64,000 nucleotides of DNA from a virus (taxonomy: Duplodnaviria; Heunggongvirae; Uroviricota; Caudoviricetes). Location of the stretch: IMG/VR virus record IMGVR_UViG_3300024269_000002; one strand, written 5' to 3'. Every line of letters starts with the position of its first letter. The first letter of the stretch is position 1. Below the pieces are notes generated by a model. The model had not been told where the DNA came from. It worked only from the letters and a program-made list of their open reading frames with translations, and ran no database searches. The position numbers and the translations under genes are program-made. Of the stretch, positions 13,929-52,137 are shown piece after piece.

Positions 13929-14399
13929 ATGAAGCCTGAGAAGATTCTCGAAGCCATCAAGGCGATTCCTGGTGGCAGATTTTTCCGCGTCCGTTACATG
14001 ACCAAGGTCAAGATGAATGCCGAGTCCGTCAAGAACGGCATTACGGTTATCAAGATCGTGGACACCACCACTCGTACTGGTGTCAAGTACAAGAACATTG
14101 CTGGCGTTGTGCTGAACGAGTACCCCGACAGCTATGTCCCCAAGGTCTCCAACTGGGAGTGGGTTATTCCTCAGCGAGTCAAGCACAACAGCAAGACTGG
14201 TAAGGATTACCTGGTCATCGCTCCCATCGCGAAGGGTCACAACACTCATGTGTCCTATGTCCTGACCGATGGTGACGGCAACAGCCGAGTCATCACGAAG
14301 GAAGAGGCAAAGGAGTACTCTGTTCCCTCCTACTGGAAGGAAGGCGACAAGCCTGCTATCATGAACGTTACTCTGGAGAATGTTCTGATGGTTAAGTAA
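13929..14399 (+). CDS. hypothetical protein, strongly codon-optimised (probably abundant)
   Basis: GGAGG RBS; GC content and C-ending codon usage far above the window average. Confidence 0.55.
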   Translation: MKPEKILEAIKAIPGGRFFRVRYMTKVKMNAESVKNGITVIKIVDTTTRTGVKYKNIAGVVLNEYPDSYVPKVSNWEWVIPQRVKHNSKTGKDYLVIAPIAKGHNTHVSYVLTDGDGNSRVITKEEAKEYSVPSYWKEGDKPAIMNVTLENVLMVK

Positions 14400-17351: not shown

Positions 17352-20084
17352 ATGAATGAACATGATGTAAAAAGTCTTGTAAGTGATCTATCTAGCATCG
17401 ATGGAATCTTTGTTTCGGAAACATTTCCTGTTCGAACTAGAAAGTATGCTCAAGGATACCGAGTATATGCAAAATACATCTTTGATGATCAACAGTATGC
17501 ACAGAATCTTGAAACTCTTGTTAAGAATGGTTGTGACAAAAACACTGTTCTTGAGGACCGTGGAGAGTGCGTGAAAAAGTTCATGGACAGTGCTATTCGG
17601 TCAATCATTGATAAATATTCTAACTTGAATATTGCTGTTAACCACAAGCTGTGGGGAATAGCTGGTCATGATGTTTGGGATGAAGTTACATTGACTGTCA
17701 AACCTGCTTCAGGCATTGCAGAGGATCTAGAAACTGAACTCGAAATTCCTGCTCCATACAATCAGTACTACGAGTTTTCTCCCAACGAAGTAAACTTTGA
17801 TGAGTTGCCTGATGCTTTTGATCATTACAAAGATCTGAAAGTTATTGCTGAGTTGTATGCAAAAGAGCAGTATGAAGATGCACTTGCTGATAACTGTCTT
17901 GACTTCTGCTGGCTTGTTGAAGATGAGATTGGTAAGCTGTTGTTAGTCACCACAGCTGGTTTGCGTGTGTATCCGATTACACTTGAAGAGATTCAGAATT
18001 GTGTTGGTGATGGATCCAGTGACAACTACTTTGATTTTGATGAGGGGTACACTGGTGAGCCGTCCTCTACTGAGTACGGTGATGCAGTGTCTCGTTACTT
18101 TAGAGAGATGACTGATGCTATCGAAAAGTACAACATCCGTAAAATCGGTCGTAAGCGTTCTATCGAGTATGATGGTGTTGTTAACGGACACAAGTTCTTC
18201 TTTGTTGAAGGTAATACTGGAACAGGACATTATGCTAAAGAACTTTACATTGATGGTAAAGAAGTAAATCTATATCAATCAAAAGAGTCAGAAAGATCTT
18301 TTGCATATCTGAATGAAATGAATCAGTTTGGTATTCTGTCACTTGTTAAGATGTTAGAGAATGATAATCTTAGCGGAATTGTTTATCGTGATGTTGATAC
18401 TCTTGACGACTATGAAGAGGGTCTGGTTGAAGATGTTGAAATGTCTGATGCTCAGAGACTTGCCCTCCAGGAATTGGATTCCTGTTTAGAATGTGGCGAG
18501 CTTACTGCAGAGAAACATGCTCTTGCTTATCAGATTCAGTGGGATATCAACTTTGAGGATGTACTGCTGTTTATCAACGGTATTGATGCTGATTTGAAAG
18601 ATATCAAACATGTGGAGTACGGCGACTGCGATGAAACAAAATTTGATGGTTGCTACTCTGTAACATTCCACAACGGTGATGTTAAGAATTATGGCTGGCA
18701 CGATTTTGATATGACTGGTTCATTGACCTGCATTGATTGTAATGAAGGTATTCTAAGTGCCATTACTGGGATGACTCCAGTTGGTTTGACTGAAGATGTT
18801 GATGACGGTTGGGAGAAGCCTTTTGACTGGACTGAACGTTATGTTAAAGATGGTTTCGTGATCTACAACAATTATCAAGGCGCTTGGCATCTAGAACAAA
18901 CAAGACCTAAGACCAAGCACTTCGGTAACTACAAAACTCTTGAAGCTGCAAAAGCAGCTGGTGACAAAGAGATTGCTGCAAGAGAGAACAAGAATAGAGG
19001 CAAGAAACCTCAGTTTGGCGTTCATCGTTTCTCTACTGATTCAATCATCTTCAGAGGCACTGAAGCAGAGTGTGGTAAATACATTGACGATAGAGAAGAG
19101 CTGTGGGACGACGCAGAAGTTTACATGATGACTCCTTCTGATCCACATTATCTACAAGAGGGAACTGGCTCTGACACTGCTCATGTTATTCGTGATGTAC
19201 TTACTACTGCATCAAAAGAAGATAAGGATGGTTGGACAAAAACTATTGCTGATATCATTGATGTTATTCCCGACCAATACATTGATGATTTGTATGACAT
19301 TACATCCGAGAAGCTGAAGGATGTTAAAGTCACAGACGCAGAAAAGAAAAAGATTCTTGATGCATCTGGCTCCGACATCGACTTGAATAACGACTTTGAC
19401 ACAGTCGGAAAGATTCTTGCACTGTTCGATGTACAGTCTTGGGATGCAGCAACATTGAAGAAGTTTGTTCTTGTTGTTCTGGGAATTGTGGCTGTTATTG
19501 AACCTACTCCGATTTTAGAAATTGTAACAGCGGTTGTTTCTCTGCTTCCTGCTGATATTGTTAAGACTATTCTTTCCATTACAAACACGATCGGCAATCC
19601 TGTAGGTGCAATCGGCACTATTGCAAACCGTGCTTATCAAAGCAGTAAAAATGAAGATTATGCTCGTGTTGATGCAAAAGACTTTGTAAAACATCCTATG
19701 AACTATGATGTGACTAGTATGCTTGAATTTGAAGTTCAGGATGATGTTAAGGTCTACATTCATAGAGGTCCTGGAAGACAGCGTGAGTTCTACATTATTA
19801 TCGGCGACGCATATGTTCAGCACGCATTCAACAAGCTTGAAACTGTTGAGAAGTATCTCAGAAGAAACAATCTTGTTAAAGAAGTTATCTCAGAAAGTTT
19901 CAAGCCAGGTGATGTTGTTTATGTTACCGTTTGTAACAGACAAGGTCGTGTTCGTAAGATGATTTCTCCTGATGTTGTGGAAGTAGAGCTGCATGACAAC
20001 GGCGTCTATCCCGAAAGAATTGATCGGTACTATGTAGACGAAGTGGAACTACAGTACAGTGATGATCTGGACGATGAGTTCTAA
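17352..20084 (+). CDS. large hypothetical protein (910 aa)
   Basis: Long uninterrupted ORF with RBS; no recognisable motifs. Confidence 0.6.
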   Translation: MNEHDVKSLVSDLSSIDGIFVSETFPVRTRKYAQGYRVYAKYIFDDQQYAQNLETLVKNGCDKNTVLEDRGECVKKFMDSAIRSIIDKYSNLNIAVNHKLWGIAGHDVWDEVTLTVKPASGIAEDLETELEIPAPYNQYYEFSPNEVNFDELPDAFDHYKDLKVIAELYAKEQYEDALADNCLDFCWLVEDEIGKLLLVTTAGLRVYPITLEEIQNCVGDGSSDNYFDFDEGYTGEPSSTEYGDAVSRYFREMTDAIEKYNIRKIGRKRSIEYDGVVNGHKFFFVEGNTGTGHYAKELYIDGKEVNLYQSKESERSFAYLNEMNQFGILSLVKMLENDNLSGIVYRDVDTLDDYEEGLVEDVEMSDAQRLALQELDSCLECGELTAEKHALAYQIQWDINFEDVLLFINGIDADLKDIKHVEYGDCDETKFDGCYSVTFHNGDVKNYGWHDFDMTGSLTCIDCNEGILSAITGMTPVGLTEDVDDGWEKPFDWTERYVKDGFVIYNNYQGAWHLEQTRPKTKHFGNYKTLEAAKAAGDKEIAARENKNRGKKPQFGVHRFSTDSIIFRGTEAECGKYIDDREELWDDAEVYMMTPSDPHYLQEGTGSDTAHVIRDVLTTASKEDKDGWTKTIADIIDVIPDQYIDDLYDITSEKLKDVKVTDAEKKKILDASGSDIDLNNDFDTVGKILALFDVQSWDAATLKKFVLVVLGIVAVIEPTPILEIVTAVVSLLPADIVKTILSITNTIGNPVGAIGTIANRAYQSSKNEDYARVDAKDFVKHPMNYDVTSMLEFEVQDDVKVYIHRGPGRQREFYIIIGDAYVQHAFNKLETVEKYLRRNNLVKEVISESFKPGDVVYVTVCNRQGRVRKMISPDVVEVELHDNGVYPERIDRYYVDEVELQYSDDLDDEF

Positions 20085-20108
20085 GCAATAATATATAACA
20101 GTTATAAT

Positions 20109-20142
20109 GAGCTACTGACTTCGGTTGGTAGCTCATTTTTAT
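20109..20142 (+). terminator. rho-independent terminator
   Basis: gagctac-tgacttcggt-tggtagctc stem followed by ATTTTTAT. Confidence 0.7.
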
Positions 20143-20151
20143 GTTTATTAG

Positions 20152-20180
20152 TTGATTAAACTGTTATGTACATATATAAT
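20152..20180 (+). promoter_or_regulatory. conserved promoter TTGATT-N17-TATAAT with AACTGTT
   Basis: tagTTGATTaAACTGTTatgtacataTATAAT. Confidence 0.6.
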
Positions 20181-20196
20181 ATGTATGTAGTTAGTA

Positions 20197-20448
20197 ATGG
20201 ATTGGAGGTGTATTCCAGTGGACTACGGTAAGATCTATATCGCGACGAAGAACTGGCAGACTGGTACAGATATTCTTGATTACAGTGACGGCACTGCATA
20301 TTTCAATCTCTTTGGTGAGAAGTGCAAGTGCAATCTGTTTGAGCGTGTTGTGTATCATGAAGTAAACGGCGAATGGAAGCCTTATGAGAGGGCAGCCGAG
20401 GTTGTTGACGTTCGTACTCCTGAAATCTCTGTTAAGGGAGGCAAGTAA
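20197..20448 (+). CDS. hypothetical small protein
   Basis: ORF in track; start uncertain (in-frame GTG at 20218 after GGAGG). Confidence 0.45.
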   Translation: MDWRCIPVDYGKIYIATKNWQTGTDILDYSDGTAYFNLFGEKCKCNLFERVVYHEVNGEWKPYERAAEVVDVRTPEISVKGGK

Positions 20449-20454
20449 GTACAT

Positions 20455-20739
20455 ATGAAATCATTGATTCGGAGCATCGTTATCAAGATAGCAGTAGCAG
20501 TTATTCTCTGCACAGTGCTATCATTGGTACTAAGTGCAATCATGCCAACATTCGGCAATGATATTGCAATGGGACAGCTGGAACATGATGATGTAAGTTT
20601 CATGCAGATGGAAATGTGGAACCGAATTCAGAATGGTGTTACAACTGTTCAGTACATTATCACAGTCATTTGTGGTGTCTTAGTCGGCACCGATGTATAC
20701 AAACTTATCAAAACAAGAAAGAAGGAAATTGACAAATGA
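20455..20739 (+). CDS. small two-TM membrane protein (possible partner of the downstream SPFH protein)
   Basis: Two hydrophobic helices; ATGA overlap with the SPFH lipoprotein gene. Confidence 0.5.
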   Translation: MKSLIRSIVIKIAVAVILCTVLSLVLSAIMPTFGNDIAMGQLEHDDVSFMQMEMWNRIQNGVTTVQYIITVICGVLVGTDVYKLIKTRKKEIDK

Positions 20740-21686
20740 AGAAGCATATCAAGAAGTTCTTGCTGCTTGCAGTTCTGGTAGTCCTGGTGTGTTCTCTGGC
20801 TGGTTGTCGTAGACCTTATGACACTCCTGAGTTCGTGACCATTGAAGCATCTCAGACTGCATTCCTGATCCCTCTGGTAGGTGACACTACTGATCAGGGT
20901 GTATTTGAATCTGAAGAGTTGCTGTTGCAGGCAAAGGTTGCAACAAAGGAAATTCAGATTCCGCACCGTTGGGTACAGACTGGACGCAGAGATTATACCG
21001 GTGAGTGGCGTCCGAGTGCAACTTTGATTGTTGTCGAACGTAAGCCTGTATCTCGTTCCTGGGAATCTGGTGAGTCTACTGCAACATCTGCAAACAAAGC
21101 AATCTTCGGCGAGACTTCAGATAACATCGGCATCTATGTTGGTATGAACTGCACTGCAATGATTGAAGAAAAGGATGCAGCAAAGTTCTTGTATCGTTAC
21201 AACAACACGCCTCTGGAAACGATTATCGATACTGACATCAAGAAGATGGTGGAAGATCGTTTCAATATTGAGACAGCAAAGTATACTTCTACAGAGCTCG
21301 GTGCAAAGAAGGGTGACATCATGGAAGCCGTCAAGGAGTATGTTGTCACATATTTCAAGGATTATGGCATCACGATTACTGTGCTTGGTCTGAAGGAGGG
21401 TATCAGTTTTGAAAACCCCGCAATTCAGGAAGCTATTGATGCAAAGTTTGCTTCCGAACAAGAACTGGTAATTCAGCAGAACAAGAATGAGGCAAATCTG
21501 GCTAAGGCAGAAGCAGAGGCGAAGGCAATGATCATGCTGGCAGAAGCTGAGGCAGAAGCTAATCGTCTGCTTGCCGAATCTTTGACTGACGAAATTCTGG
21601 CACAGCTCTACTACGAGAAGTGGGATGGTAAGCTGCCTACTTACTACGGTGGTGGCGATGAAGTTCCTGTAATTCAGGTTCCCTGA
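20736..21686 (+). CDS. SPFH/band-7 domain lipoprotein (prohibitin/HflC-like)
   Basis: Signal peptide plus lipobox (LAGC), then an SPFH C-terminal pattern (...AIQEAIDAKFASEQE...AEAEAKAMIMLAEAEAEANRLLAESLTDEILAQLYYEKWDGKLP). Confidence 0.65.
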   Translation: MKKHIKKFLLLAVLVVLVCSLAGCRRPYDTPEFVTIEASQTAFLIPLVGDTTDQGVFESEELLLQAKVATKEIQIPHRWVQTGRRDYTGEWRPSATLIVVERKPVSRSWESGESTATSANKAIFGETSDNIGIYVGMNCTAMIEEKDAAKFLYRYNNTPLETIIDTDIKKMVEDRFNIETAKYTSTELGAKKGDIMEAVKEYVVTYFKDYGITITVLGLKEGISFENPAIQEAIDAKFASEQELVIQQNKNEANLAKAEAEAKAMIMLAEAEAEANRLLAESLTDEILAQLYYEKWDGKLPTYYGGGDEVPVIQVP

Positions 21687-21702
21687 TAACTAACAATTAA
21701 CA

Positions 21703-21746
21703 ATACTAGCGCAGCCGCATAAAGTGGCTGCGCTAGTATTATTTTT
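21703..21746 (+). terminator. rho-independent terminator
   Basis: 14-bp stem atactagcgcagcc/ggctgcgctagtat followed by a T tract. Confidence 0.8.
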
Positions 21747-21750
21747 ACAG

Positions 21751-21779
21751 TTGAATAAAATATCAAACTACTTTATAAT
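21751..21779 (+). promoter_or_regulatory. conserved promoter TTGAAT-N17-TATAAT
   Basis: acagTTGAATaaaatatcaaactacttTATAAT. Confidence 0.55.
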
Positions 21780-21814
21780 ATATGTATAATAAGAGACTTG
21801 TTGAGGTGAGTTCT

Positions 21815-22009
21815 TTGACTAAACAGCAGTTACAATCAGAGCTCGATCGGATGACTGCAGGCAAGTACAGCCCTTACAGTATCTGTGACTTAACTGACAA
21901 GATTTCTTGGATGTGGAAGTGGCGTAAGATTACTGAAGAGGAAAAGAACTCAATGGTTGAACAAGCCATCAGTATTATGCAGTCTGGTGAGTATTCTGTT
22001 TATCGTTGA
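21815..22009 (+). CDS. hypothetical small protein (start uncertain)
   Basis: The ORF-track ATG at 21782 lies inside the promoter; in-frame TTG at 21815 and ATG at 21854 follow GAGGTGAG. Confidence 0.35.
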   Translation: MTKQQLQSELDRMTAGKYSPYSICDLTDKISWMWKWRKITEEEKNSMVEQAISIMQSGEYSVYR

Positions 22010-22024
22010 ATTGGAGGAACAGTT

Positions 22025-22384
22025 ATGAAGAAGTTTGTTACCCTTGTTGATTTCGGTGTGGAGTTTGGTAAGGCTACTTATGGTCACGGCAGTATGCGTC
22101 TGATGTCCATTGGAACTACCAGCGACGGTTACTATACTTTCCGTTGTCGTGATGATGAGGGCAATGAGAAGGTCTTCAAAGTTTCCTGTTGGGACCAGAC
22201 TGCTCCTGCGCTGATTGATCGTGTTGCTATTCTGGAACATGCAATTCAGTATGGTAAGGATGCCGCCGTTGAGCTATTGAAGTGCTACGGTCCTGACAAC
22301 TATCTGCAGACCAAAGATAACTACAATGATCTTCTGTATCTCCTCACTGGTGGCAAGGAAGGTTCTCCTATGGAGGATTTCTGA
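22025..22384 (+). CDS. hypothetical protein
   Basis: GGAGG RBS. Confidence 0.5.
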   Translation: MKKFVTLVDFGVEFGKATYGHGSMRLMSIGTTSDGYYTFRCRDDEGNEKVFKVSCWDQTAPALIDRVAILEHAIQYGKDAAVELLKCYGPDNYLQTKDNYNDLLYLLTGGKEGSPMEDF

Positions 22385-22590
22385 TGTTAACAATCTTGAA
22401 ACCTTGTCCCTTCTGTAAAGGAAAGGCAAAGCGTAAGCACGGCAAGTACAATCTTCTTGGAGCGTATGGTACTCCAGAACAAGATAGAACTTGGTATGCT
22501 GTTTATTGCACAAAGTGTCACATAAGTCAGTGGCCTAAGACTTATCATTCAAGAGAAGAGTCGGACGCCGCTTGGAATGAACGGAGTTGA
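22384..22590 (+). CDS. zinc-ribbon protein
   Basis: CPFC...CTKC cysteine pairs; ATGA overlaps on both sides. Confidence 0.5.
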   Translation: MLTILKPCPFCKGKAKRKHGKYNLLGAYGTPEQDRTWYAVYCTKCHISQWPKTYHSREESDAAWNERS

Positions 22591-22595
22591 TTTTA

Positions 22596-23260
22596 TGGCA
22601 AATGTTGATAAGATGTATACATATTTGAGAGGTTATCTGATTGGTGCAAACATGACTGAGTCTATCAAGGCTCTGAGTTTTGCTCGACAGCAGCATTCTC
22701 TACAAACTCGTAAGGATGGCACACCTTACATTGTTCATCCACTGTCTATGGCTTGTTATGCTGTAGCCCTTGGTTTGCGTGATGACAACATCATTGCAAC
22801 TATCCTACTTCATGATGTTCCTGAGGACTGTGGTGTTCCTGTTGACTACATTCCCGTTAATAGTGTTATTCGTGACGCTGTTAAGCATATGACGATTACA
22901 AAGTTTGACACCGATGTCGATAAGATTGAAACAAAGTGTCGGTATTTCAATGAACTCCTCGAGAGTAGAGAAGCTCTTATTTGTAAAGCTCTGGATCGGT
23001 ATAACAATCTTTCCGATGCACCGTTGTCTCTTTCTCCCGATGCTGTGGCAAAGAACGTTGCTGAAACCGAAGTACTTCTGCTTCCTGTTTTGAAGTCTGC
23101 AAAAGCGATCTATGCTGATCTTGCCGATGCACTTTTCATCATGAGAACTAATCTTGAGGTCCTCGTCGGTATTTTGAAGCAACAGCACTGGGATCAGTAC
23201 ACTAAGTGGAAGTGCATCTATGAGCGGCAAACTTCCGTTACTTCCTTAAATAAGGAATGA
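22596..23260 (+). CDS. RelA/SpoT-family HD-domain hydrolase (small alarmone hydrolase, SAH)
   Basis: YIVHPLSMACYAVALGL...ATILLHDVPEDCG matches the (p)ppGpp-hydrolase HD motif; about 220 aa single-domain protein. Confidence 0.65.
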
Positions 23261-23270
23261 GGTGAGGTAG

Positions 23271-23504
23271 TTGGAACACTGGGTAAAACGTGTTGGAGAC
23301 AGAGTATTCCTTGTTGGTGAACATGCTGACGACGGCTTGTATGAGATTCTGCGTCGTATTGAACAATTAGAGAATGATTTGGATCTTCAAAAAACTATGT
23401 ATCGCAATCTAGAGCGTAAGTATGAGATTGCTAAACAATGGAACAAATGCACAGAGGAGGAAGTAACTGATGCCTTGTTACAAACTATTCAACAAGTGTC
23501 CTGA
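23271..23504 (+). CDS. hypothetical small protein
   Basis: TTG start after GAGGTGAGG. Confidence 0.45.
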   Translation: MEHWVKRVGDRVFLVGEHADDGLYEILRRIEQLENDLDLQKTMYRNLERKYEIAKQWNKCTEEEVTDALLQTIQQVS

Positions 23505-23700
23505 TACTGCAATCAGGTTACGATTTGCTTGGACACCGTTAAGTGACATGAATGGAAAAACAATCTGGCTACAAAGATACTGGGAGTTTGGAGAGTGGTG
23601 GGAATTCGGCTTCTTTGTCCTTCGTGGTAGCAAGAAACAGTTTCCTACTAAACAGTTGTTCTGGGACTACATCAAATATCGAGTTGCATCGATGTACTAA
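23470..23700 (+). CDS. hypothetical Trp-rich small protein
   Basis: GGAGG RBS 10 nt upstream; overlaps the end of the previous ORF. Confidence 0.4.
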   Translation: MPCYKLFNKCPDTAIRLRFAWTPLSDMNGKTIWLQRYWEFGEWWEFGFFVLRGSKKQFPTKQLFWDYIKYRVASMY

Positions 23701-23715
23701 GGGGGAATACATACT

Positions 23716-24318
23716 ATGGATTGGATGCATAACAAAGCATATTACAGATTTGTCTACATCATGATTAACATCTTTTCTGCGTTGATCACAGTTTCTCCTG
23801 CGATTCTTGTTCTGTTGTTACCTGAAAATCTGCAGTGGATCGCATTTATTCTTATTCCGTTCACTATCAGTCAGATCTTCTTTGTTGCAACTCCTGTTCT
23901 CAGTGTGCTGGAAGCTTACAAGAATGCTTCAAGCAAGAGAGGCCTTATTCATGAAAAAGATATCTATGCTTTGTTCAAGGAAGATGGCACTGCAAAACTT
24001 CATGTTGGTGACATTGATACACTGCCTCGTTATAATGTAGAAATTCCTGAAACGAAAGTTACAATGGTACCGACAGAGGGCTTCTGGATTCAAGACAGTG
24101 AGATCTGGCAGCAGACTGGTGAGCCTACTAAACATTTGCTACCCGTCTGTAACAGTTGCGGTAAAGAGTTAGGAATGAAATTCATGGAAGACTCCACATT
24201 CAAGCATTGTCCTGGATGTGGCAAAAGAATCACACTTGCTCGTATTCCGAATAACTGGTTAGAAGAAATGCAAGCACAAGAAGAGTTAAGAACGAAACTG
24301 AAGGATAAAGCTGAATGA
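23716..24318 (+). CDS. membrane protein with C-terminal zinc ribbon
   Basis: Two N-terminal TM helices; CNSCG...CPGCG. Confidence 0.5.
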   Translation: MDWMHNKAYYRFVYIMINIFSALITVSPAILVLLLPENLQWIAFILIPFTISQIFFVATPVLSVLEAYKNASSKRGLIHEKDIYALFKEDGTAKLHVGDIDTLPRYNVEIPETKVTMVPTEGFWIQDSEIWQQTGEPTKHLLPVCNSCGKELGMKFMEDSTFKHCPGCGKRITLARIPNNWLEEMQAQEELRTKLKDKAE

Positions 24319-24584
24319 CGTATGTACATTACTGGCATTTTCAAAAAGCTTGGTATGTAAGACTTACAGACTGCTCGACTCCAGAAAGAGTCTATTGGCA
24401 CGACAGCGCTAGGATTCAAGAGTTCTGGAATCAACATTATCTTATTGCTGGCTCTGAATGGATGACAGAACGAGAAGTCAGAACTAAGTTGAAAGAAGCT
24501 AATCCTGACTTTATAATAATTAAAGATAAGCCCTTCCATGAGGGAAGACGATGGTTCGGTTACAAAGATGGCTCAAGGAGATAA
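24315..24584 (+). CDS. hypothetical protein
   Basis: ATGA-coupled ORF. Confidence 0.45.
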   Translation: MTYVHYWHFQKAWYVRLTDCSTPERVYWHDSARIQEFWNQHYLIAGSEWMTEREVRTKLKEANPDFIIIKDKPFHEGRRWFGYKDGSRR

Positions 24585-24586
24585 CA

Positions 24587-24916
24587 ATGCCAACTATTCA
24601 TGATTGTGAAAGATGTACTCAAGAATGTCCTCAAAGACAACTTGCAAGAGAGAATGCGGAAAAGCGTATGTATGCAACTCATGAATTTGTTGCACTACAG
24701 AAGGAAATTGAAGCAGGAAATCTAACTTACATTGTACATTCCCACTGGATGTGGAATAAGTATAACGGTGAAGTTAGATGTAGGAACTGCAAAGCTCTTA
24801 TCGGTGTGTGTTTTTCTGAAACATCACTAAACGAACTCAAGAACGAACAACACTACTGTTACAACTGCGGTGCAAGGATGGTGGAGGTAACGAATGCCAG
24901 ATCAACTGATTCGTAA
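24587..24916 (+). CDS. zinc-ribbon protein
   Basis: AAGGAG RBS; CERC...CRNC...CYNCG. Confidence 0.5.
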   Translation: MPTIHDCERCTQECPQRQLARENAEKRMYATHEFVALQKEIEAGNLTYIVHSHWMWNKYNGEVRCRNCKALIGVCFSETSLNELKNEQHYCYNCGARMVEVTNARSTDS

Positions 24917-25253
24917 ATGTGATGCACGCAGAGCGGTACTTAGAGAATGTCCTTCTGCAGCTCATGTAATTGATTCTATCAAAACTGTGGATGCTATGCC
25001 AGTAGTTCATGCACATCTTGTTGAAAGAATTGTAGATCATGAAGTTCCCAGTTACACTGTATTTGAATGCAGTGCTTGTTTTAATAGATGCGACAACTGG
25101 GTAAGATACTGCTCTTACTGTGGAGCAAGATTGGATGGTGAAACAGAATTTGTCAGAACTATTACCACACCCGGATTTTCTCTGGACAATCAGCACAACA
25201 AGAATTATGAGGAGAAGAGCAAAGATGTTAACTCTGAGGAGTACATATGGTAG
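24894..25253 (+). CDS. zinc-ribbon protein
   Basis: CSAC...CSYCG. Confidence 0.45.
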   Translation: MPDQLIRKCDARRAVLRECPSAAHVIDSIKTVDAMPVVHAHLVERIVDHEVPSYTVFECSACFNRCDNWVRYCSYCGARLDGETEFVRTITTPGFSLDNQHNKNYEEKSKDVNSEEYIW

Positions 25254-25447
25254 TCGACGAAAAAACATGTAAGTTCGCAAAGAATCGAGAATGCATAATT
25301 ACTGGTCGTCTATGTATTCATTCTGATCCATATGTGTGCGAGTACATTCATAAAGCATATGAGCAGGGCTACAAAGAGGGTTACAATGCTTGTCAAGCAG
25401 ATGATCTATTTGAGGGATCTGGCATAGGAGGTTTTCATGACTACTGA
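25247..25447 (+). CDS. small Cys-rich protein
   Basis: ORF in track. Confidence 0.4.
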   Translation: MVVDEKTCKFAKNRECIITGRLCIHSDPYVCEYIHKAYEQGYKEGYNACQADDLFEGSGIGGFHDY

Positions 25448-25712
25448 TAATGAGAAGAAGTACAAGAGCATTATTCACAAGCCTCCTGTTAGTATTGATG
25501 ATACTTTGTATTTCATCATCAATGGTGATGTATATAAAGCAACAGTTTGTTTAATTTCGTATACTGAATATAGAAATCACATAGTTACGGAGATTCGTGG
25601 AGAGGTACATCCTTTTCACACTGTTAGCGTTACATGGGATGATTGGAAAATCAAAGTATTCCGTACAGAAGAAGAGGCTTATGCCAAACTGTACAACAAA
25701 TGTGGAGAATGA
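25437..25712 (+). CDS. hypothetical protein
   Basis: ORF in track. Confidence 0.45.
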   Translation: MTTDNEKKYKSIIHKPPVSIDDTLYFIINGDVYKATVCLISYTEYRNHIVTEIRGEVHPFHTVSVTWDDWKIKVFRTEEEAYAKLYNKCGE

Positions 25713-25900
25713 ATATGCCTAAGTATGTACTGCTGGATTGCCTGTGGACTTGTAACACTTGTTTGAATCGTGTTAATGGAATGTGTCGTCCTGATGTTTG
25801 GTGTGAGTGTGGAGAAGCATATCGTCCTGCTTATGATAAGTTAACAATTGTGGAAGGCACTATTGTAAAGGATAAACATGAAGACCATCGACAAGATTAG
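25709..25900 (+). CDS. small Cys-rich protein
   Basis: CLWTCNTC...CRPDVWCEC. Confidence 0.4.
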   Translation: MNMPKYVLLDCLWTCNTCLNRVNGMCRPDVWCECGEAYRPAYDKLTIVEGTIVKDKHEDHRQD

Positions 25901-26069
25901 AAATTACATTAGATCCATTTCTTCAACTGAGGATCAATATAACAAACTGTTAGATAAGATTTGGATAAATCCTGAACAAAGAAACAAGGAGTGTAAACAT
26001 CCCGAACAAGAAACATGTGCTGGATGCCCTCTGAACTATTTCAGAAAGGAATCATATGTTCTGGAATAA
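25878..26069 (+). CDS. small hypothetical protein
   Basis: ORF in track; CKHPEQETCAGC. Confidence 0.4.
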   Translation: MKTIDKIRNYIRSISSTEDQYNKLLDKIWINPEQRNKECKHPEQETCAGCPLNYFRKESYVLE

Positions 26070-26418
26070 ACATAAAAATAGTAACAGTTATTCTACTGTT
26101 ACTGTAAATGGTAAGACAATTCGTGTAAAGGGAAACAACATTGCAATTATCGGTGACAAGATAATTGTTGATGGTAAACCACTCGATGAGTCAATGGATG
26201 CTAAAAACATTACTGTTATAGTTGAAGGTAGTTGTAATCAACTTGACGCTTGTGGTAATGTAGAAGTCCACGGAGATTGCAACTATGTGGATTGCGGCGG
26301 CAACTGCACTATCAGAGGATCTGTCATAGGAGATGTTGATGCGGGTGGCGCTGTTAACTGTGGTGATGTTGGAGGCAGTATTGACGCTGGTGGTACTGTT
26401 TGGTCTTTAAGGAGCTAA
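26056..26418 (+). CDS. beta-helix repeat protein (bactofilin-like?)
   Basis: Tandem G-x-V/I-x-G repeats (GNVEVHGDCNYVDCGGNCTIRGSVIGDVDAGGAVNCGDVGGSIDAGG). Confidence 0.4.
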   Translation: MFWNKHKNSNSYSTVTVNGKTIRVKGNNIAIIGDKIIVDGKPLDESMDAKNITVIVEGSCNQLDACGNVEVHGDCNYVDCGGNCTIRGSVIGDVDAGGAVNCGDVGGSIDAGGTVWSLRS

Positions 26419-26422
26419 AAAT

Positions 26423-26743
26423 ATGAAGCAAACTGAAATGACACTCGATGCAGCTCTTAAGATTGTTGATGAGTTTTGTCCCATCAAAGTTATCTTCAAC
26501 AACTGCATTCTATATAACGACTACGATGATGAAATCCCTCGTGGCAAGGATGTGGATGATACTGTTATGTACGGTGAAACTCAACCTCCTATGAAAGTTA
26601 TTCCGCATCGTCTTTACATGTATCATAGCTATGTTGTAACTACAATCAAAGTTGAAATTGTGCAGCATCATCATAGTATTGTAACTATTACTGGTCACTA
26701 TGATCCGAAGGCTGCTGAAAGAGGTACTGATCATGATAGTTGA
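26423..26743 (+). CDS. hypothetical protein
   Basis: ORF in track with RBS. Confidence 0.45.
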   Translation: MKQTEMTLDAALKIVDEFCPIKVIFNNCILYNDYDDEIPRGKDVDDTVMYGETQPPMKVIPHRLYMYHSYVVTTIKVEIVQHHHSIVTITGHYDPKAAERGTDHDS

Positions 26744-27179
26744 TGTTCGTACTAAGCAAGTTCCTGCAAGAACTATTACTGAGACCTGGTATATTGCTTC
26801 AGATGGCAGAGAGTTCTTGAGTCAATCTGCATGTGAGGACTGGGAACGATGGCTCGAGATTCAAGAACAGCCTGTGTTCAAAACATGTATCACAAATGTT
26901 TGGACACTCGATGATGAAGCCGCCATTCTTTACAATATCAGAAACAATGAAGATCATCAAACTTTGATGTCTACTTTCTCAGACAGACAAAAGCGTAACT
27001 TTAGTGACGAGTACATGAAATATGGCCCTGGCTGGTACATCTATTTCAGTATTGATGGTGGAGATGGTCCTGACTTCTATCATCTGTGGCAGTACGATGC
27101 TTACTTGAAAGAGCATGAAGACGACTTCAATCGTTGGAAGAATGAGATGGCATCAAAGATGGCTTCAACTTTCAACTAA
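26733..27179 (+). CDS. hypothetical protein
   Basis: GAAAGAGG RBS. Confidence 0.45.
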   Translation: MIVDVRTKQVPARTITETWYIASDGREFLSQSACEDWERWLEIQEQPVFKTCITNVWTLDDEAAILYNIRNNEDHQTLMSTFSDRQKRNFSDEYMKYGPGWYIYFSIDGGDGPDFYHLWQYDAYLKEHEDDFNRWKNEMASKMASTFN

Positions 27180-27302
27180 GAATGTGAACCGAGTAGAAAT
27201 CTTTATAGCTAGTTTCGTTGTAGATATGAATGCTGATCAGGAATTCTTACTTAGTTTACTGATTGGCAGATGATACAAGAAGATCCAGAATCATATTATT
27301 CC

Positions 27303-27338
27303 TGACGCTGCAGAAATGCAGCGTCATGTTTTGTTTCT
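27303..27338 (+). terminator. hairpin/terminator TGACGCTGCA-gaaa-TGCAGCGTCA followed by a T-rich tract
   Basis: 10-bp stem; its stem sequence is shared with the hairpin at 28882-28915. Confidence 0.55.
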
Positions 27339-27427
27339 CCTGTTGTAAAATTATGATAGAGAATTCTTCACATTTCCGTCATTCTTGTATATAATATAGA
27401 ATAGCAAACACGAAAGGAGAATAATCA

Positions 27428-28411
27428 ATGTATCTGGCTCTACCAACAAGTATCCATGTAGATACAGTAAATCCACCTACAAGGACGAACTGCTTGTGGC
27501 TATGTACAACTCCGATACGAGTGATTCCTGTAACAGGAACATTCATCGAAGAATCTACAATGAATGCTGAATCTTTTACTTCGTTTATTACTAATGACTC
27601 TTTTCAAGTATATGAGTTCAACACATACCCTGTTATCAAATTTTATGTTCAAACAAGTAATAGTTGGGAAGACGTTATTACAAATAATACATACAACATC
27701 ACCATGAATATGTCAGGATGCTTCGGATACTCTACCAACCCAACAGAGATTGATGAAGGCGATAGTGCAACGCTTTACTTCCAGGCAAATGCAGGGTATT
27801 CCTTGCCGACTAGTATCTATGTAAGTGGGGCGGAATATGACTGGAACTGGTCTGTCGGGGAATTGATCCTTCGTAATCCCACAGGCCCGGTGTATGTAAG
27901 TATAAGTTGTGTGGGGAATTGCTGTTTTGCGGCAGGGACACCTGTATTGATGAGTAACGGTACTTTCAAAAACATTGAAAACATTGTAGCTGGCGACATC
28001 GTTATAACATTCAATGAAGAATCCGAGGTATATGAGCCTGGAACGGTTATATACTTCTTTGTTAAGCCAAACACGCAGGATATGGCGAAGCTGATATTTG
28101 AAGACGGCACAGAAATAACTATGAACGCATATCACCCGATGTATACGACTGACGGCTGGAAATCGCTGACAGGAAGCGGAGGTCTGCCGATCCTGACGAA
28201 GGAGGACACAATTCTTTCGACCGACAAGAAGTGGGTGAAAATATCGGACATTGTGCGGTGGTTCAGCGATGAATATATCACAACTTACAACCTTGATGTC
28301 GAGAATAACGACAACTACTTTGTAGGAAAGACACCAGTAATGGCAAGCAATGTCGAATCCTGCTTTGTTCCTTCGCCTGGCATAAAACCTGCACCTGAGA
28401 TAACAGTATGA
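27428..28411 (+). CDS. Hint/bacterial-intein-like (BIL) domain protein
   Basis: CFAAGTPVLMSNGTFKNIENIVAGDIV...YHPMYTTDGW...YNLDVENNDNYFVG...VMASN is a Hint-domain signature lacking a +1 nucleophile (BIL-like); AAAGGAG RBS; GC-rich outlier. Confidence 0.6.
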   Translation: MYLALPTSIHVDTVNPPTRTNCLWLCTTPIRVIPVTGTFIEESTMNAESFTSFITNDSFQVYEFNTYPVIKFYVQTSNSWEDVITNNTYNITMNMSGCFGYSTNPTEIDEGDSATLYFQANAGYSLPTSIYVSGAEYDWNWSVGELILRNPTGPVYVSISCVGNCCFAAGTPVLMSNGTFKNIENIVAGDIVITFNEESEVYEPGTVIYFFVKPNTQDMAKLIFEDGTEITMNAYHPMYTTDGWKSLTGSGGLPILTKEDTILSTDKKWVKISDIVRWFSDEYITTYNLDVENNDNYFVGKTPVMASNVESCFVPSPGIKPAPEITV

Positions 28412-28824
28412 TATTCGATACATCGAATCAAGAATGGGGATATTACAAAAATATCTTGAACGCACCAGACTTGACTGTTCCCGAATACGGAGTATACGGT
28501 AGGATCGTGTATATGACTGCCGAGCAGTATATTCGTGAGTGTGCAAGGATAACGCACACTCAATACGAATCGCATATGCGAATACTGAAACATGAAAAAG
28601 CAGATAGGAATAACATCGAGTATCTGAAAACGCTGGACTTCCCTATTGCCATTCCGGTAATCAACTATTCCTGCCGGGCGCAGGAGGGCAGACACCGGGC
28701 AGTCGCATTCGCGGAACTTCACGGGGATGATGCTACCTTCCCATGTTTGGCGGTGTACTGGATCGATGAACAAAAGAAAGGCCTTAGCTTCTGGCAATGG
28801 ATGCGCAAGCGGAGAAAAGAATAG
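28408..28824 (+). CDS. hypothetical protein coupled to the Hint-domain gene
   Basis: ATGA overlap; GC-rich like its upstream partner. Confidence 0.5.
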   Translation: MIFDTSNQEWGYYKNILNAPDLTVPEYGVYGRIVYMTAEQYIRECARITHTQYESHMRILKHEKADRNNIEYLKTLDFPIAIPVINYSCRAQEGRHRAVAFAELHGDDATFPCLAVYWIDEQKKGLSFWQWMRKRRKE

Positions 28825-28881
28825 CTGGAGCATTCAACGCAATAATGAGCTGAGAGTTAGTTTGAACTAATATACAACCTG

Positions 28882-28915
28882 AATGACGCTGTAATCTTTA
28901 CAGCGTCATTTTTGT
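28882..28915 (+). terminator. rho-independent terminator (ATGACGCTGTAAA / TTTACAGCGTCAT)
   Basis: 13-bp stem followed by TTTTTG; shares the TGACGCTG/CAGCGTCA core with the hairpin at 27303. Confidence 0.7.
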
Positions 28916-28917
28916 AG

Positions 28918-28946
28918 TTGATCAAAGAAGAATTTTACTATATCAT
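28918..28946 (+). promoter_or_regulatory. promoter variant TTGATC-N17-TATCAT
   Basis: gtagTTGATCaaagaagaattttactaTATCAT. Confidence 0.4.
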
Positions 28947-30836: not shown

Positions 30837-31279
30837 GAAGAGTTACAGTATACCGAAAGAAACCAACACGACAGTCTCTTGAAGTAGATCTTGTTGTTCA
30901 CAAGGAGATGCTTGAACAAGCTGAAATTGAGATCTGTCGCCATAAAGACACTATCGACACGCTTCAGAAAGAACTTGTAGAAGCTCATGACAAGCTGCAT
31001 CAACTGGAGAGGGCTGTTGTAACTCAATCTTGTTGTTGGATGTGTGCTAACAATCTAATGTGTCACCAAGGACGAGAGTTGCCTCAAAGTCCAGATGTTG
31101 CTTGTGGTAATTTCAAGTTCGGTTACAAAACATCAGAAAAACACAGTGACACTGTTTGTGATTACAAACATGGAAAAGTATGTTGGGCTCAGAAGGGTGC
31201 CCCTTTGTGTGATCCGGTGTTCTGTCCAGTAAAGGAGAAACGTCCAAGTGAAAACATTAACTTCGTGGCTACAAAATGA
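30833..31279 (+). CDS. Cys-rich protein with N-terminal coiled-coil
   Basis: CCWMCANNLMCH...C..C..C cluster. Confidence 0.45.
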   Translation: MRRVTVYRKKPTRQSLEVDLVVHKEMLEQAEIEICRHKDTIDTLQKELVEAHDKLHQLERAVVTQSCCWMCANNLMCHQGRELPQSPDVACGNFKFGYKTSEKHSDTVCDYKHGKVCWAQKGAPLCDPVFCPVKEKRPSENINFVATK

Positions 31280-31511
31280 CGCAAAAGATTGTGGTTTGTG
31301 CGACCCTCCGATGAAAGCTCAAGAAGCTGTTGACTTCCTAAAGAACTATCTTCTCGGAGAGAACTGGTATGTTACAATGCCACAGAATGCAGAACAGTGT
31401 AATACTGCAATTGTAATTGAAATCTTATGCAAGTATTCTCCGAAATTCCGTAAGGAATTGAAAGAGGCAAAGAAGGAGAAGAAACGTCGTGAGAAGAATA
31501 AGCACATATAA
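31248..31511 (+). CDS. hypothetical protein with basic KKEKKRREKNK tail
   Basis: ORF in track. Confidence 0.4.
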   Translation: MKTLTSWLQNDAKDCGLCDPPMKAQEAVDFLKNYLLGENWYVTMPQNAEQCNTAIVIEILCKYSPKFRKELKEAKKEKKRREKNKHI

Positions 31512-35653: not shown

Positions 35654-35673
35654 CTGAATACACGTTGAACTAA

Positions 35674-35707
35674 TAAGCTACCGATTCTTCGGTAGCTTAT
35701 TTTTGTA
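35674..35707 (+). terminator. rho-independent terminator
   Basis: aagctaccg-attcttc-ggtagctt stem followed by ATTTTTG. Confidence 0.75.
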
Positions 35708-35708
35708 G

Positions 35709-35737
35709 TTGATAGTTACTTAACTGTTTATTATAAT
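35709..35737 (+). promoter_or_regulatory. conserved promoter TTGATA-N17-TATAAT with AACTGTT
   Basis: gtagTTGATAgttacttAACTGTTtatTATAAT. Confidence 0.6.
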
Positions 35738-35773
35738 ATGTATGTAAACTAACTAAACTGAAGGAGGCATCAG

Positions 35774-52037: not shown

Positions 52038-52057
52038 CGGTTATTTCACATACAAAG

Positions 52058-52095
52058 AATGAGGTGCTATTCGCGTAGCACCTCATTTCTTGTAT
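52058..52095 (+). terminator. terminator-like hairpin
   Basis: aatgaggtgcta/tagcacctcatt 12-bp stem followed by TCTTGTAT. Confidence 0.5.
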
Positions 52096-52137
52096 ATAAA
52101 GTATATAGATCAAACTTTGAGGAAGGATGTTGATAGT

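Follow-up and report, generated by a model that had tools for sequence, protein, structure and literature searches.

The stretch of DNA analysed here, a 64,000-nucleotide (nt) segment of a Caudoviricetes virus recorded in IMG/VR as IMGVR_UViG_3300024269_000002 and referred to below as the window, contains a two-gene unit that lies between two look-alike hairpins (Table 1). The first gene, gene A, encodes a chimeric protein in which an orphan N-terminal segment is followed by an immunoglobulin (Ig)-like repeat, a Hint domain apparently of the bacterial intein-like (BIL) type and a short proline-rich tail; the second, gene B, encodes a small protein with a QEGRHR motif. The look-alike hairpins had suggested to an earlier, sequence-only reading that the unit is a mobile cassette. 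Comparison with homologous loci shows instead a resident slot equipped with a promoter and a terminator, the content of which has been swapped, with a breakpoint inside a gene. The promoter and terminator signals of the unit are sequence predictions only. The start of gene A is also the one picked by the Joint Genome Institute (JGI) gene call (327 amino acids, aa), and the overlap by which the sequence-only reading coupled the 138-aa open reading frame (ORF) to it is confirmed, the gene B start overlapping the gene A stop through ATGA.

Table 1. Features of the two-gene unit and its flanks, in window coordinates.
Feature	Coordinates	Strand	Description
Hairpin 1	27303..27336	+	Terminator-like: 10-bp stem, GAAA loop (27303-27326), U-rich tail
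Promoter-like site TTCACA-17-TATAAT	27367..27395	+	11/12 matches; inside the region homologous to contig L014
Shine-Dalgarno AAAGGAG	27413..27419	+	8 nt 5' of the gene A ATG
Gene A	27428..28411	+	327 aa, chimeric Ig-like/Hint protein
Gene A residues 1-86	27428..27685	+	Orphan A+T-rich N-terminus, outside the block shared with locus L001
Gene A residues 87-165	27686..27922	+	Ig-like β-sandwich repeat and short linker
Gene A residues 166-308	27923..28351	+	Predicted BIL-type Hint domain, Cys166 to Ser-Asn308
Gene A residues 309-327	28352..28411	+	19-aa Pro-rich tail (VESCFVPSPGIKPAPEITV) and stop; last codons overlap the gene B start (ATGA)
Gene B	28408..28824	+	138 aa, QEGRHR motif, probable ParB/sulfiredoxin fold, coupled to gene A
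Horizontally shared block	27686..28815	+	90% nucleotide identity to L001 (blastn); 1.13 kb, the true foreign segment
Hairpin 2	28882..28916	+	Terminator-like: 13-bp stem (28882-28910) and T-tract
Promoter-like site TTGATC-17-TATCAT	28918..28946	+	Predicted, for the next unit (83-aa gene from 28978)

The extent of the foreign DNA is given by an unrelated contig, L001, in which a 467-aa Hint protein (P0002) is followed by a gene B homologue with a 4-nt overlap. No blastn match to L001 was found outside the shared block, and identity is at random level on both of its sides. The first gene A codon within the block is codon 87, and 9 nt separate the end of the block from the gene B stop; its left edge is 360 nt past hairpin 1 and its right edge 67 nt short of hairpin 2, and the hairpins, the promoter, the ribosome-binding site (RBS) and the first 86 codons of gene A are not shared. 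These boundaries mean that the acquired DNA runs from within gene A to a point slightly short of the gene B stop, and that the hairpins are not its ends, contrary to the idea that they delimit it.

Within the block, identity to L001 changes from domain to domain. It is 64.6% in the Ig-like repeat (27686-27880), 88% in the linker (27881-27922), 98.8% in the Hint-coding segment, 76.8% with a two-codon indel in the segment encoding the 19-aa tail (28352-28407) and 94.6% in gene B (28408-28815). The Hint-coding segment includes 346 consecutive nt without a mismatch (28007-28352), and the first mismatch past this tract (28353) falls in the first codon after Asn308; at the divergence of gene B the probability of such a tract would be about 0.946^346, or about 5e-9. 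Because the Hint tract is nearly identical while its flanks stand at 65-77%, the Hint domain has a separate and more recent history, and the segment encoding it appears to have been exchanged recently as a module of its own, the borders of which coincide with the borders of the protein domain. By the Nei-Gojobori method, synonymous divergence (dS) from L001 is 1.63 for the Ig-like part, with a ratio of nonsynonymous to synonymous divergence (dN/dS) of 0.15; it is 0.04 for the Hint domain and 0.20 for gene B, where dN/dS is 0.17. The Ig-like part and gene B are under purifying selection.

The G+C excess claimed for the block exists, but it is modest (43.5% for 27428-28824 versus 40.4% for the window, the 95th percentile of equal-length sliding windows) and uneven, and richer regions are found elsewhere in the window, for example around position 2000 (about 47%). 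No coding stretch is more A+T-rich than the first 258 nt of gene A (GC 35%), and the G+C content at third codon positions (GC3) of codons 1-86 is 27%, below that of every one of the 74 window ORFs compared. Across 27686-28821, GC3 is 49% for the rest of gene A and 53% for gene B, the 95th to 97th percentile of ORFs against a window mean of 38%. The suggestion that the unit was recently acquired holds for much of it, as judged by the 90% identity to L001 and the foreign GC3, but not for its beginning, the acquired part starting inside gene A.

The regulatory shell around the foreign DNA can be followed in L014, an 8.9-kb contig that was the sole syntenic relative found in a metagenome scan and that is 75-87% identical to window 18343-27161. 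L014 has one hairpin after its orthologous 148-aa gene (AATGACGCCAC-ATTCCA-GTGGCGTCATT, then TTTATAG; -19.6 kcal/mol), and L014 7785-7908 aligns with the window promoter and RBS, with conservation of GTCATT..TGTATAT(A/C)AATAT and of CGAAAGGA..ATCAATG. The gene that follows is an unrelated ORF, open for at least 339 codons up to the contig end. By eye, the N-terminus of this ORF and that of gene A have nothing in common. Since hairpin 1, the promoter and the RBS are kept in L014 with a different gene, the hairpins are to be seen as the phage's own terminators around a variable slot. A second content swap is found in the same gene array, where about 1 kb of the window (25700-26730), holding three small ORFs (25878-26069, 26056-26418 and 26423-26743), is missing from L014 (compare L014 7080-7337).

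Both hairpins are perfect stems and score as intrinsic-terminator-like sites. Hairpin 1 (TGACGCTGCA-GAAA-TGCAGCGTCA, then TGTTTTGTTT) folds at -18.1 kcal/mol (z -5.5 versus shuffles) and is predicted to close the upstream operon (148/159-aa gene, stop at 27179). Hairpin 2 (AATGACGCTGTAA-TCT-TTACAGCGTCATT, then TTTGTAG) folds at -19.1 kcal/mol (z -7.6 versus shuffles) and is predicted to close the unit formed by genes A and B. The flanking hairpins with a shared stem core are real, as had been noticed from the sequence: the core GACGCTG..CAGCGTC occurs at these two sites only in 64 kb, with 0 expected in shuffles. The outer stem, however, is not specific to the unit. Together with its T-tail (AATGA..TCATT TTTGTAGTTGAT) the outer stem of hairpin 2 is shared with the L014 hairpin and with a terminator-promoter module at 35672-35746, and the outer stem AATGA(G/C)..(C/G)TCATT is also present in window terminators at 20106, 35672 and 52058, in those at 20106 and 52058 as an AATGAG..CTCATT frame. 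Because this motif recurs in the terminators of the window, the resemblance of the two hairpins is partly a genome-wide habit. Its best reading is paralogy, or a family likeness, of terminators that belong to the phage itself, and it is no signature of an insertion. It was also observed that TTTGTAGTTGAT lies directly 3' of the hairpins at 28882 and 35672, that the promoter after hairpin 2 is likewise shared with the unit at 35672, that terminator-promoter modules recur at 20106-20189, 28882-28946, 35672-35746 and 52058-87, and that an identical, extended -10-like 15-mer, TATAATATGTATGTA, is present at 20175 and 35732. With three or fewer mismatches TATAATATGTATGTA has 17 sites in the window versus 3 expected, and the recurring modules that carry it may represent a phage-specific promoter class.

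The two sides of the breakpoint in gene A are of different character. Residues 1-86 are probably resident sequence: no homologue was found anywhere searched, there was no PHROG match, tblastn against the rest of the window gave no similarity, and the predicted local distance difference test score (pLDDT) is below 30. Residues 87-165 are modelled as seven β-strands with a pLDDT of 66-83 and carry the signature NTYNIT..STNPTEIDEG..VSGAEYDW..LRNPTGPVYVSISC. The same Ig-like repeat occurs, often twice, in a small family of metagenomic proteins with or without a Hint domain (P0002, P0004, P0005, P0007-P0009 and a 270-aa protein of the phage L006). The AlphaFold2 (AF2) model of gene A has a pLDDT of 56 overall and about 55-85 in the Hint part, and it was used for the Hint and Ig-like parts only.

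Hidden Markov model searches bear out the Hint domain that had been proposed from the sequence. The Pfam family PT-HINT (PF07591) matches residues 179-301 with 30.5 bits against a gathering score of 27.7, with weaker Pfam matches to Vint, Hom_end_hint, Hint and Intein_splicing; NCBIfam intein_Nterm (TIGR01445) matches residues 166-240 with 28.3 against a cutoff of 24.5, and intein_Cterm is slightly under its cutoff at residues 286-308. The landmarks of the domain are Cys166 (CFAAGTPV), a block-B histidine (NAYHP; His236, domain position 71), block F (YNLDVENNDNYFVG) and the terminal Ser-Asn308. When gene A was aligned with the three other Hint-bearing homologues (P0002, P0003 and P0006), Cys1, the block-B His, block F (YNLDVE.NDN.FVG) and the terminal Asn were invariant in all four. 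The residue after the terminal Asn is never a nucleophile, being Val in gene A and Ala, Gly or Lys in the homologues, and the penultimate residue is Ser in gene A and P0002 and His in P0003 and P0006. A profile of the four proteins searched against the PDB recovered the Tetrahymena BUBL BIL2 structures 6y75/6tmm (E 3e-14) and the Clostridium thermocellum BIL 2lwy (E 5e-13), with inteins at 1e-3 or weaker. Foldseek with the AF2 model placed the same BIL domains on top, followed by mini-inteins and the Hedgehog C-terminal domain, and its top 40 matches were all HINT-fold structures. The domain is thus classed as a HINT/PT-HINT member by profile and as a BIL by its nearest relatives, in keeping with the view that it is BIL-like and not a splicing intein. 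In GenBank phages, tblastn with gene A gave distant Hint matches only (25-30% identity).

Gene A has neither a toxin domain after the Hint domain, 19 residues only following Asn308, nor a secretion or trafficking domain. There is no homing endonuclease domain in the Hint segment, which at about 143 aa is of mini-intein size, and the PADLOC HEase match on gene A covers only the first 29 Hint residues, that is, the splicing motif. We considered whether the Pro-rich tail might be a conserved C-extein and rejected this, the conservation of ..P-E-[LIV].. tracking the presence of gene B: Hint proteins that lack gene B downstream have unrelated tails of 4-6 aa. The conservation probably reflects translational coupling or the Shine-Dalgarno region. 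A programmed frameshift fusing genes A and B was likewise rejected, as there is no slippery sequence at ACAGTATGA and gene B starts at an ATG of its own.

Gene B belongs to an unannotated family. Profile searches with a narrow and a broad alignment gave nothing significant in Pfam, PHROGs, NCBIfam, PADLOC or the PDB. The close family consists of ten clusters at 68-83% identity, and a profile search of 1.8 billion representatives recovered 328 distant relatives; in most of these, the homology covers a single domain of a phage-type protein of 250-1600 aa, and no Pfam family covers the gene B-homologous regions. Among 28 diverse members, Q92, G94, H96 and R97 never vary and E93 hardly does, which defines a QEGxHR box. 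We consider it probable that the protein adopts the ParB/sulfiredoxin (Srx) fold. Its AF2 model has a pLDDT of 87, weak matches in a BFVD search are enriched in ParB/Srx and GmrSD-N proteins, and in hhalign the QEGRHR box falls on the GHHR box of the ParB_N domain (E 0.06). No match was found by tblastn in GenBank phages, IMG/VR contains remote relatives only (29-35% identity), and in representative genomes there is a single 30% match, on a 1.7-kb contig of a metagenome-assembled genome, with no prophage and no host identified. One remote homologue, P0025, is encoded by a 122-kb phage (L015 6001-6774) and combines a QEGRHR domain with an acidic C-terminal half. Its gene is situated in a structural module: on one side lie genes for large proteins whose function is unknown, on the other a T4-type portal gene, with the gene for an S77 prohead protease close by.

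The pairing of genes A and B recurs. Homologues of gene B lie directly 3' of Ig-like-repeat proteins in four other contexts (L001, L006/L007, L008 and L009), and the genes overlap by 1-4 nt in three of these four pairs. The upstream protein has a Hint domain in L001; in the other contexts it is a Hint-less 270-aa protein (L006/L007), a Hint-less 308-aa protein (P0007; L008) or a Hint-less protein of at least 700 aa with BspA-type leucine-rich repeats (LRRs) (L009). The gene B homologues behind these Hint-less Ig-like or LRR fibre-like proteins are 70-83% identical to gene B. Conversely, the Hint-bearing P0003 (L002) is followed by a gene for a Stealth_CR2 protein and not by gene B, and the contig of the Hint-bearing P0006 (L004) ends 78 nt after the gene. 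Since gene B follows Hint-less fibre-like proteins, and P0003 lacks it, the partner goes with the fibre-like class of protein and not with the Hint domain, and the 138-aa ORF is not a Hint-specific partner. Downstream of gene B there is a terminator at once in the window, and the following genes differ among L001, L006 and L009. P0006 is a 438-aa protein with an N-terminal hydrophobic helix; its 4.35-kb European Nucleotide Archive (ENA) contig also encodes a Rep_OBD plus RNA_helicase replication protein and may be a small plasmid or single-stranded DNA element.

The clearest setting for the pair is provided by L006, a 43.7-kb temperate-looking phage in which it closes the tail module. It is preceded by a 1233-aa protein, interpreted from size and position as the tape measure, and by the tail proteins that come next; downstream are small ORFs, an Amidase_3 endolysin and then a serine recombinase and repressors, and a holin is also present in the lysis region. 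The 270-aa Ig-like protein of L006 (9163-9975) starts with MLKLDLQFFAGG, which we take to resemble the Prp protease-cleaved N-terminal motif of Firmicutes ribosomal protein L27 and of some phage structural proteins; this is a hint that the protein is a processed virion component and that the host belongs to the Firmicutes. No tail-fibre family in PHROG or Pfam matched the unit or its fibre-like homologues. In the literature on Hint domains with tail fibres and on PT-HINT with bacteriophages, we found terminase, helicase and other inteins and toxin surveys only, and none described this architecture or gene pair.

The unit is one of many small terminator-promoter-gene-terminator units in a phage of about 220-250 kb. 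A sequence-identical unit is present in 21 public contigs, 19 of them of 0.2-1 Mb, such as a 223-kb JGI contig. No empty site between the two hairpins was found: when contigs with identical flanks were collected by exact-protein look-up of both flanking genes, all 21 carried the unit. The 21 contigs are near-identical, so that selection within the lineage is not measurable. Scans of IMG/VR with the upstream 159-aa protein gave no match and with the downstream 144-aa protein a single distant, non-syntenic contig (L010), and blastn of 7.5 kb around the unit gave no match in GenBank phages. The 20-36 kb neighbourhood is an array of short plus-strand genes interspersed with terminator-promoter modules, and the immediate neighbours of the unit are small genes of unknown function with no recognisable tail module around it. 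No integrase, transposase or homing endonuclease was found within or beside the unit, and no direct repeats flank it except for the hairpin similarity itself. Elsewhere, the window encodes a topoisomerase II large subunit and, at 49215-56594 (+), three neighbouring large proteins of 940, 852 and 649 aa, each with several endolysin-, amidase- or M23-type peptidase PHROG matches; a 1629-aa protein upstream of these lysin-like proteins had no match. There are no tRNA genes in the 64-kb window. Precomputed Pfam matches include Tad8 in an 87-aa ORF (31248-31511), Band_7 in a 316-aa ORF (20736-21686), HD_4 in a 221-aa ORF (22577-23260) and, further downstream, YqeY, DUF3850 and Flg_new. A 156-aa ORF at 13929-14399 (+) has a GC3 of 0.69, by far the maximum of the window (mean 0.38), and may be another foreign gene.

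The explanation that we prefer, with a confidence only a little better than even, is that a resident unit has received an imported self-cleaving, fibre-like adhesin module together with its coupled partner. The regulatory shell would be resident: at its left end hairpin 1 with the promoter and RBS and, probably, the first 86 codons; at its right end hairpin 2 and the promoter that follows it. The coding content would have been replaced by recombination, the 1.13-kb import being derived from fibre-like adhesin modules carried by other phages, which apparently infect Firmicutes, and consisting of the Ig-like repeat, then the BIL Hint domain and 19-residue tail, then the coupled 138-aa protein. 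Processing would begin with an N-to-S acyl shift at Cys166 that converts the Cys165-Cys166 peptide bond to a thioester. Cyclisation of Asn308 would free the 19-aa tail, and the thioester would be hydrolysed or attacked by an amine, either that of the freed tail, as in type-A BIL ligation, or that of another molecule. The outcome would be a 165-residue Ig-like fragment released from the Hint domain, or ligated. The chemistry and definition of type-A BILs, including the C-terminal His-Asn, have been described (PMC4031507). The gene B protein would be a dedicated companion of Ig-like proteins with or without a Hint domain; its constant position and likely nucleotide-binding fold suggest a factor that acts on the upstream protein, most likely a nucleotide-dependent factor for its assembly or modification, which is the least secure step of the model. 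All functional statements made here are predictions.

A more far-reaching version, which we consider improbable, is that cargo-less BIL/Hint domains are a mobile warhead of fibre-like adhesins. The thioester would serve to ligate the Ig-like C-terminus covalently to another molecule, and not simply to shed the domain; the acceptor could be the Pro-rich tail, a cell-wall amine or a protein of the virion. The QEGRHR partner would be a nucleotide-dependent factor that controls or completes either this reaction or fibre assembly, the two forming a two-component maturation system that is exchanged between small temperate and very large phages.

Several observations weigh against the imported-module explanation. 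The penultimate residue of the Hint domain is Ser and not the His of type-A BILs, and the block-B Thr is replaced by Asn; these two substitutions may slow the processing steps. Autoprocessing and a virion location of the gene A product are themselves predicted from sequence, the unit lies outside any recognisable tail module among small genes, and the term fibre-like refers to position and to Ig-like and LRR content. The model of the whole gene A protein is poor (pLDDT 56). The mosaic boundaries come from one close comparator, L001, and L014 stops short of the right-hand border of the locus, so that the ancestry of hairpin 2 is deduced from look-alike terminators. Gene A also lacks the N-terminal domains that are present in all the Hint-bearing homologues, and the chimera could be nonfunctional. 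This last point leads to the possibility that the unit is recombination debris, with gene A a nonfunctional fibre fragment on a resident 5' end, kept because it is recent or neutral, and with gene B alone, or neither of the two, of any importance. We judge this unlikely. It would account for the missing domains, for the orphan first 86 residues with their very low predicted order and for a region in flux, as seen in the 1-kb block missing from L014, and the near-identity of the 21 contigs leaves no within-lineage selection to set against it. Yet both ORFs are intact, with a strong Shine-Dalgarno sequence and conserved coupling, the Hint catalytic residues are all kept, the dN/dS values of the Ig-like part and gene B, averaged over both lineages, are well under 1, and the unit-bearing phage is present in many samples.

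The remaining alternatives each take one feature of the unit as the key to the whole. That the Hint domain is a selfish, intein-like mobile element spreading among fibre-like genes without benefit to the phage is quite unlikely, even though its near-identity to L001 between divergent Ig-like and tail flanks, the end of the identical tract at the codon after Asn308, and the finding that at the same junction (...VSISC) homologues continue either with a Hint domain or with another Ig repeat are what such an element would leave behind. It has no homing endonuclease and is of mini-intein size, and without a +1 nucleophile clean splicing is unlikely, so that insertion would harm the host protein unless cleavage is useful. 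The Hint domain takes the place of a C-terminal repeat, with no conserved site being interrupted. The pattern is supported by one sequence pair only, and it is accounted for just as well by ordinary domain shuffling through homologous recombination, which is frequent in fibre genes. Very unlikely, in our view, is the polymorphic-toxin-like cassette that the sequence-only reading had entertained, in which a pre-toxin HINT domain releases a C-terminal effector and gene B is a split ParB-type toxin or an immunity protein. PT-HINT is the best Pfam family, PT-HINT proteins that carry EndoU, AHH or LHH toxin domains are among the matches of the Hint profile, and gene B probably has the ParB/Srx fold. 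In addition P0244, from a 1269-bp ENA contig, joins PT-HINT (36-164) and ParB_N (219-282) in one polypeptide and appears to be a fused counterpart of the Hint and ParB-like combination of a kind typical of polymorphic toxins; Tox-ParB toxins with HINT processing have been described (PMC3482391). The 19 residues past Asn308 nevertheless leave no room for a toxin domain, gene A has no secretion or trafficking domain, and PADLOC gave no toxin or defence match. Homologues of gene B stand behind Hint-less proteins, the Hint-bearing P0003 and P0006 are not shown to have gene B downstream (a Stealth_CR2 gene in one case, a contig end in the other), and no conserved, immunity-like gene follows gene B. 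Finally, a self-contained mobile or moron cassette inserted between matching hairpins that mark its ends, for example through terminator duplication, is extremely unlikely. The 8-bp stem core found nowhere else in the window, the promoter-like and terminator-like signals on the unit, the content unlike that of L014 and the foreign composition speak for it. The homology to L001 ends well inside both hairpins, however; hairpin 1, the promoter and the RBS are orthologous in L014 and serve another gene there; hairpin 2 is like other resident terminator-promoter modules; and neither enzymes of mobility nor flanking direct repeats, besides the hairpin similarity, accompany the unit.

If the imported-module explanation is correct, the unit is a concrete case of module capture by very large phages from small temperate ones. 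BIL-type Hint domains are barely documented in phage surface or fibre-like proteins, and the one described here is cargo-less. The apparent movement of this Hint domain as a discrete unit, with 346 identical nt ending at the last codon of the domain, bears on what BILs are for and how they spread. Gene B represents a family with at least 328 distant relatives that recurs beside fibre-like or structural phage genes, and a morphogenetic or protein-modifying role for the ParB/Srx fold would be new, if true. The most original elements are the evidence that the Hint module moves as a discrete piece and, with gene B, a QEGxHR family that is uncharacterised and associated with fibre-like genes; current understanding is not overturned.

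Among known systems, gene A is closest to the type-A BILs, for which our references were Amitai et al. 2003, Dassa et al. 2004, the C. thermocellum BIL 2lwy and the Tetrahymena BUBL BIL2 6tmm/6y75. In common with these it has the predicted HINT fold with N-terminal Cys, block-B His, block F and C-terminal Asn, lacks a +1 nucleophile and an endonuclease domain, and is a variable, repeat-containing, non-housekeeping protein, and its best sequence and structure matches among solved structures are BILs. It differs in the penultimate Ser, where close relatives have His-Asn, in the position of the domain at the extreme C-terminus with a flank of only 19 aa, and in being phage-encoded within an Ig-like, fibre-type protein, the processing of which we infer from its sequence. 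From canonical splicing or homing inteins it is separated by the +1 Val, by the terminal position in a variable Ig-repeat protein and by the missing endonuclease. With the PT-HINT domains (PF07591) of polymorphic toxins (Zhang et al. 2012, PMC3482391) gene A shares a score above the gathering cut-off and profile relatives that carry toxin domains, including the ParB_N fusion. Unlike them, its unit has no C-terminal toxin domain, immunity gene or secretion-associated N-terminal domain, and the downstream gene B occurs independently of Hint. As in the Hedgehog/Hog proteins (PDB 1at0, rank 23 among the structural matches), Hint is the last domain, and by analogy thioester chemistry followed by release of an N-terminal signalling or adhesin part would be expected; gene A has no sterol-recognition region, has the C-terminal Asn of inteins and BILs, and is much less identical to Hedgehog than to BILs.

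The ParB/Srx (ParB-CTPase) fold has been surveyed across Srx, the ParB N-domain, SerK, SbnI, PadC, KorB and Osa (PMC12704722). Gene B resembles its members in an invariant strand-loop-(Q)EG(R/L)HR-helix-G-x-x-PVL arrangement that aligns with the ParB_N GHHR box. It differs from them in giving no significant sequence match to members in Pfam, NCBIfam or the PDB, in lacking a helix-turn-helix or DNA-binding domain, and in its linkage to fibre-like or structural genes and not to partition, DNA modification or defence. The unit as a whole is like phage morons in having its own promoter-like site and terminator, a foreign composition and another gene in its place in L014, and unlike them in that its regulatory signals appear to be resident rather than imported. 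Compared with tail-fibre mosaicism, the recipient locus is unusual in lying among small genes of unknown function of a very large phage, and the imported part of the protein in ending with a Hint domain. The breakpoint inside a fibre-like gene is nevertheless the same: a resident 5' end joined to an imported 3' end and a downstream gene is the classic pattern of a fibre/chaperone swap.

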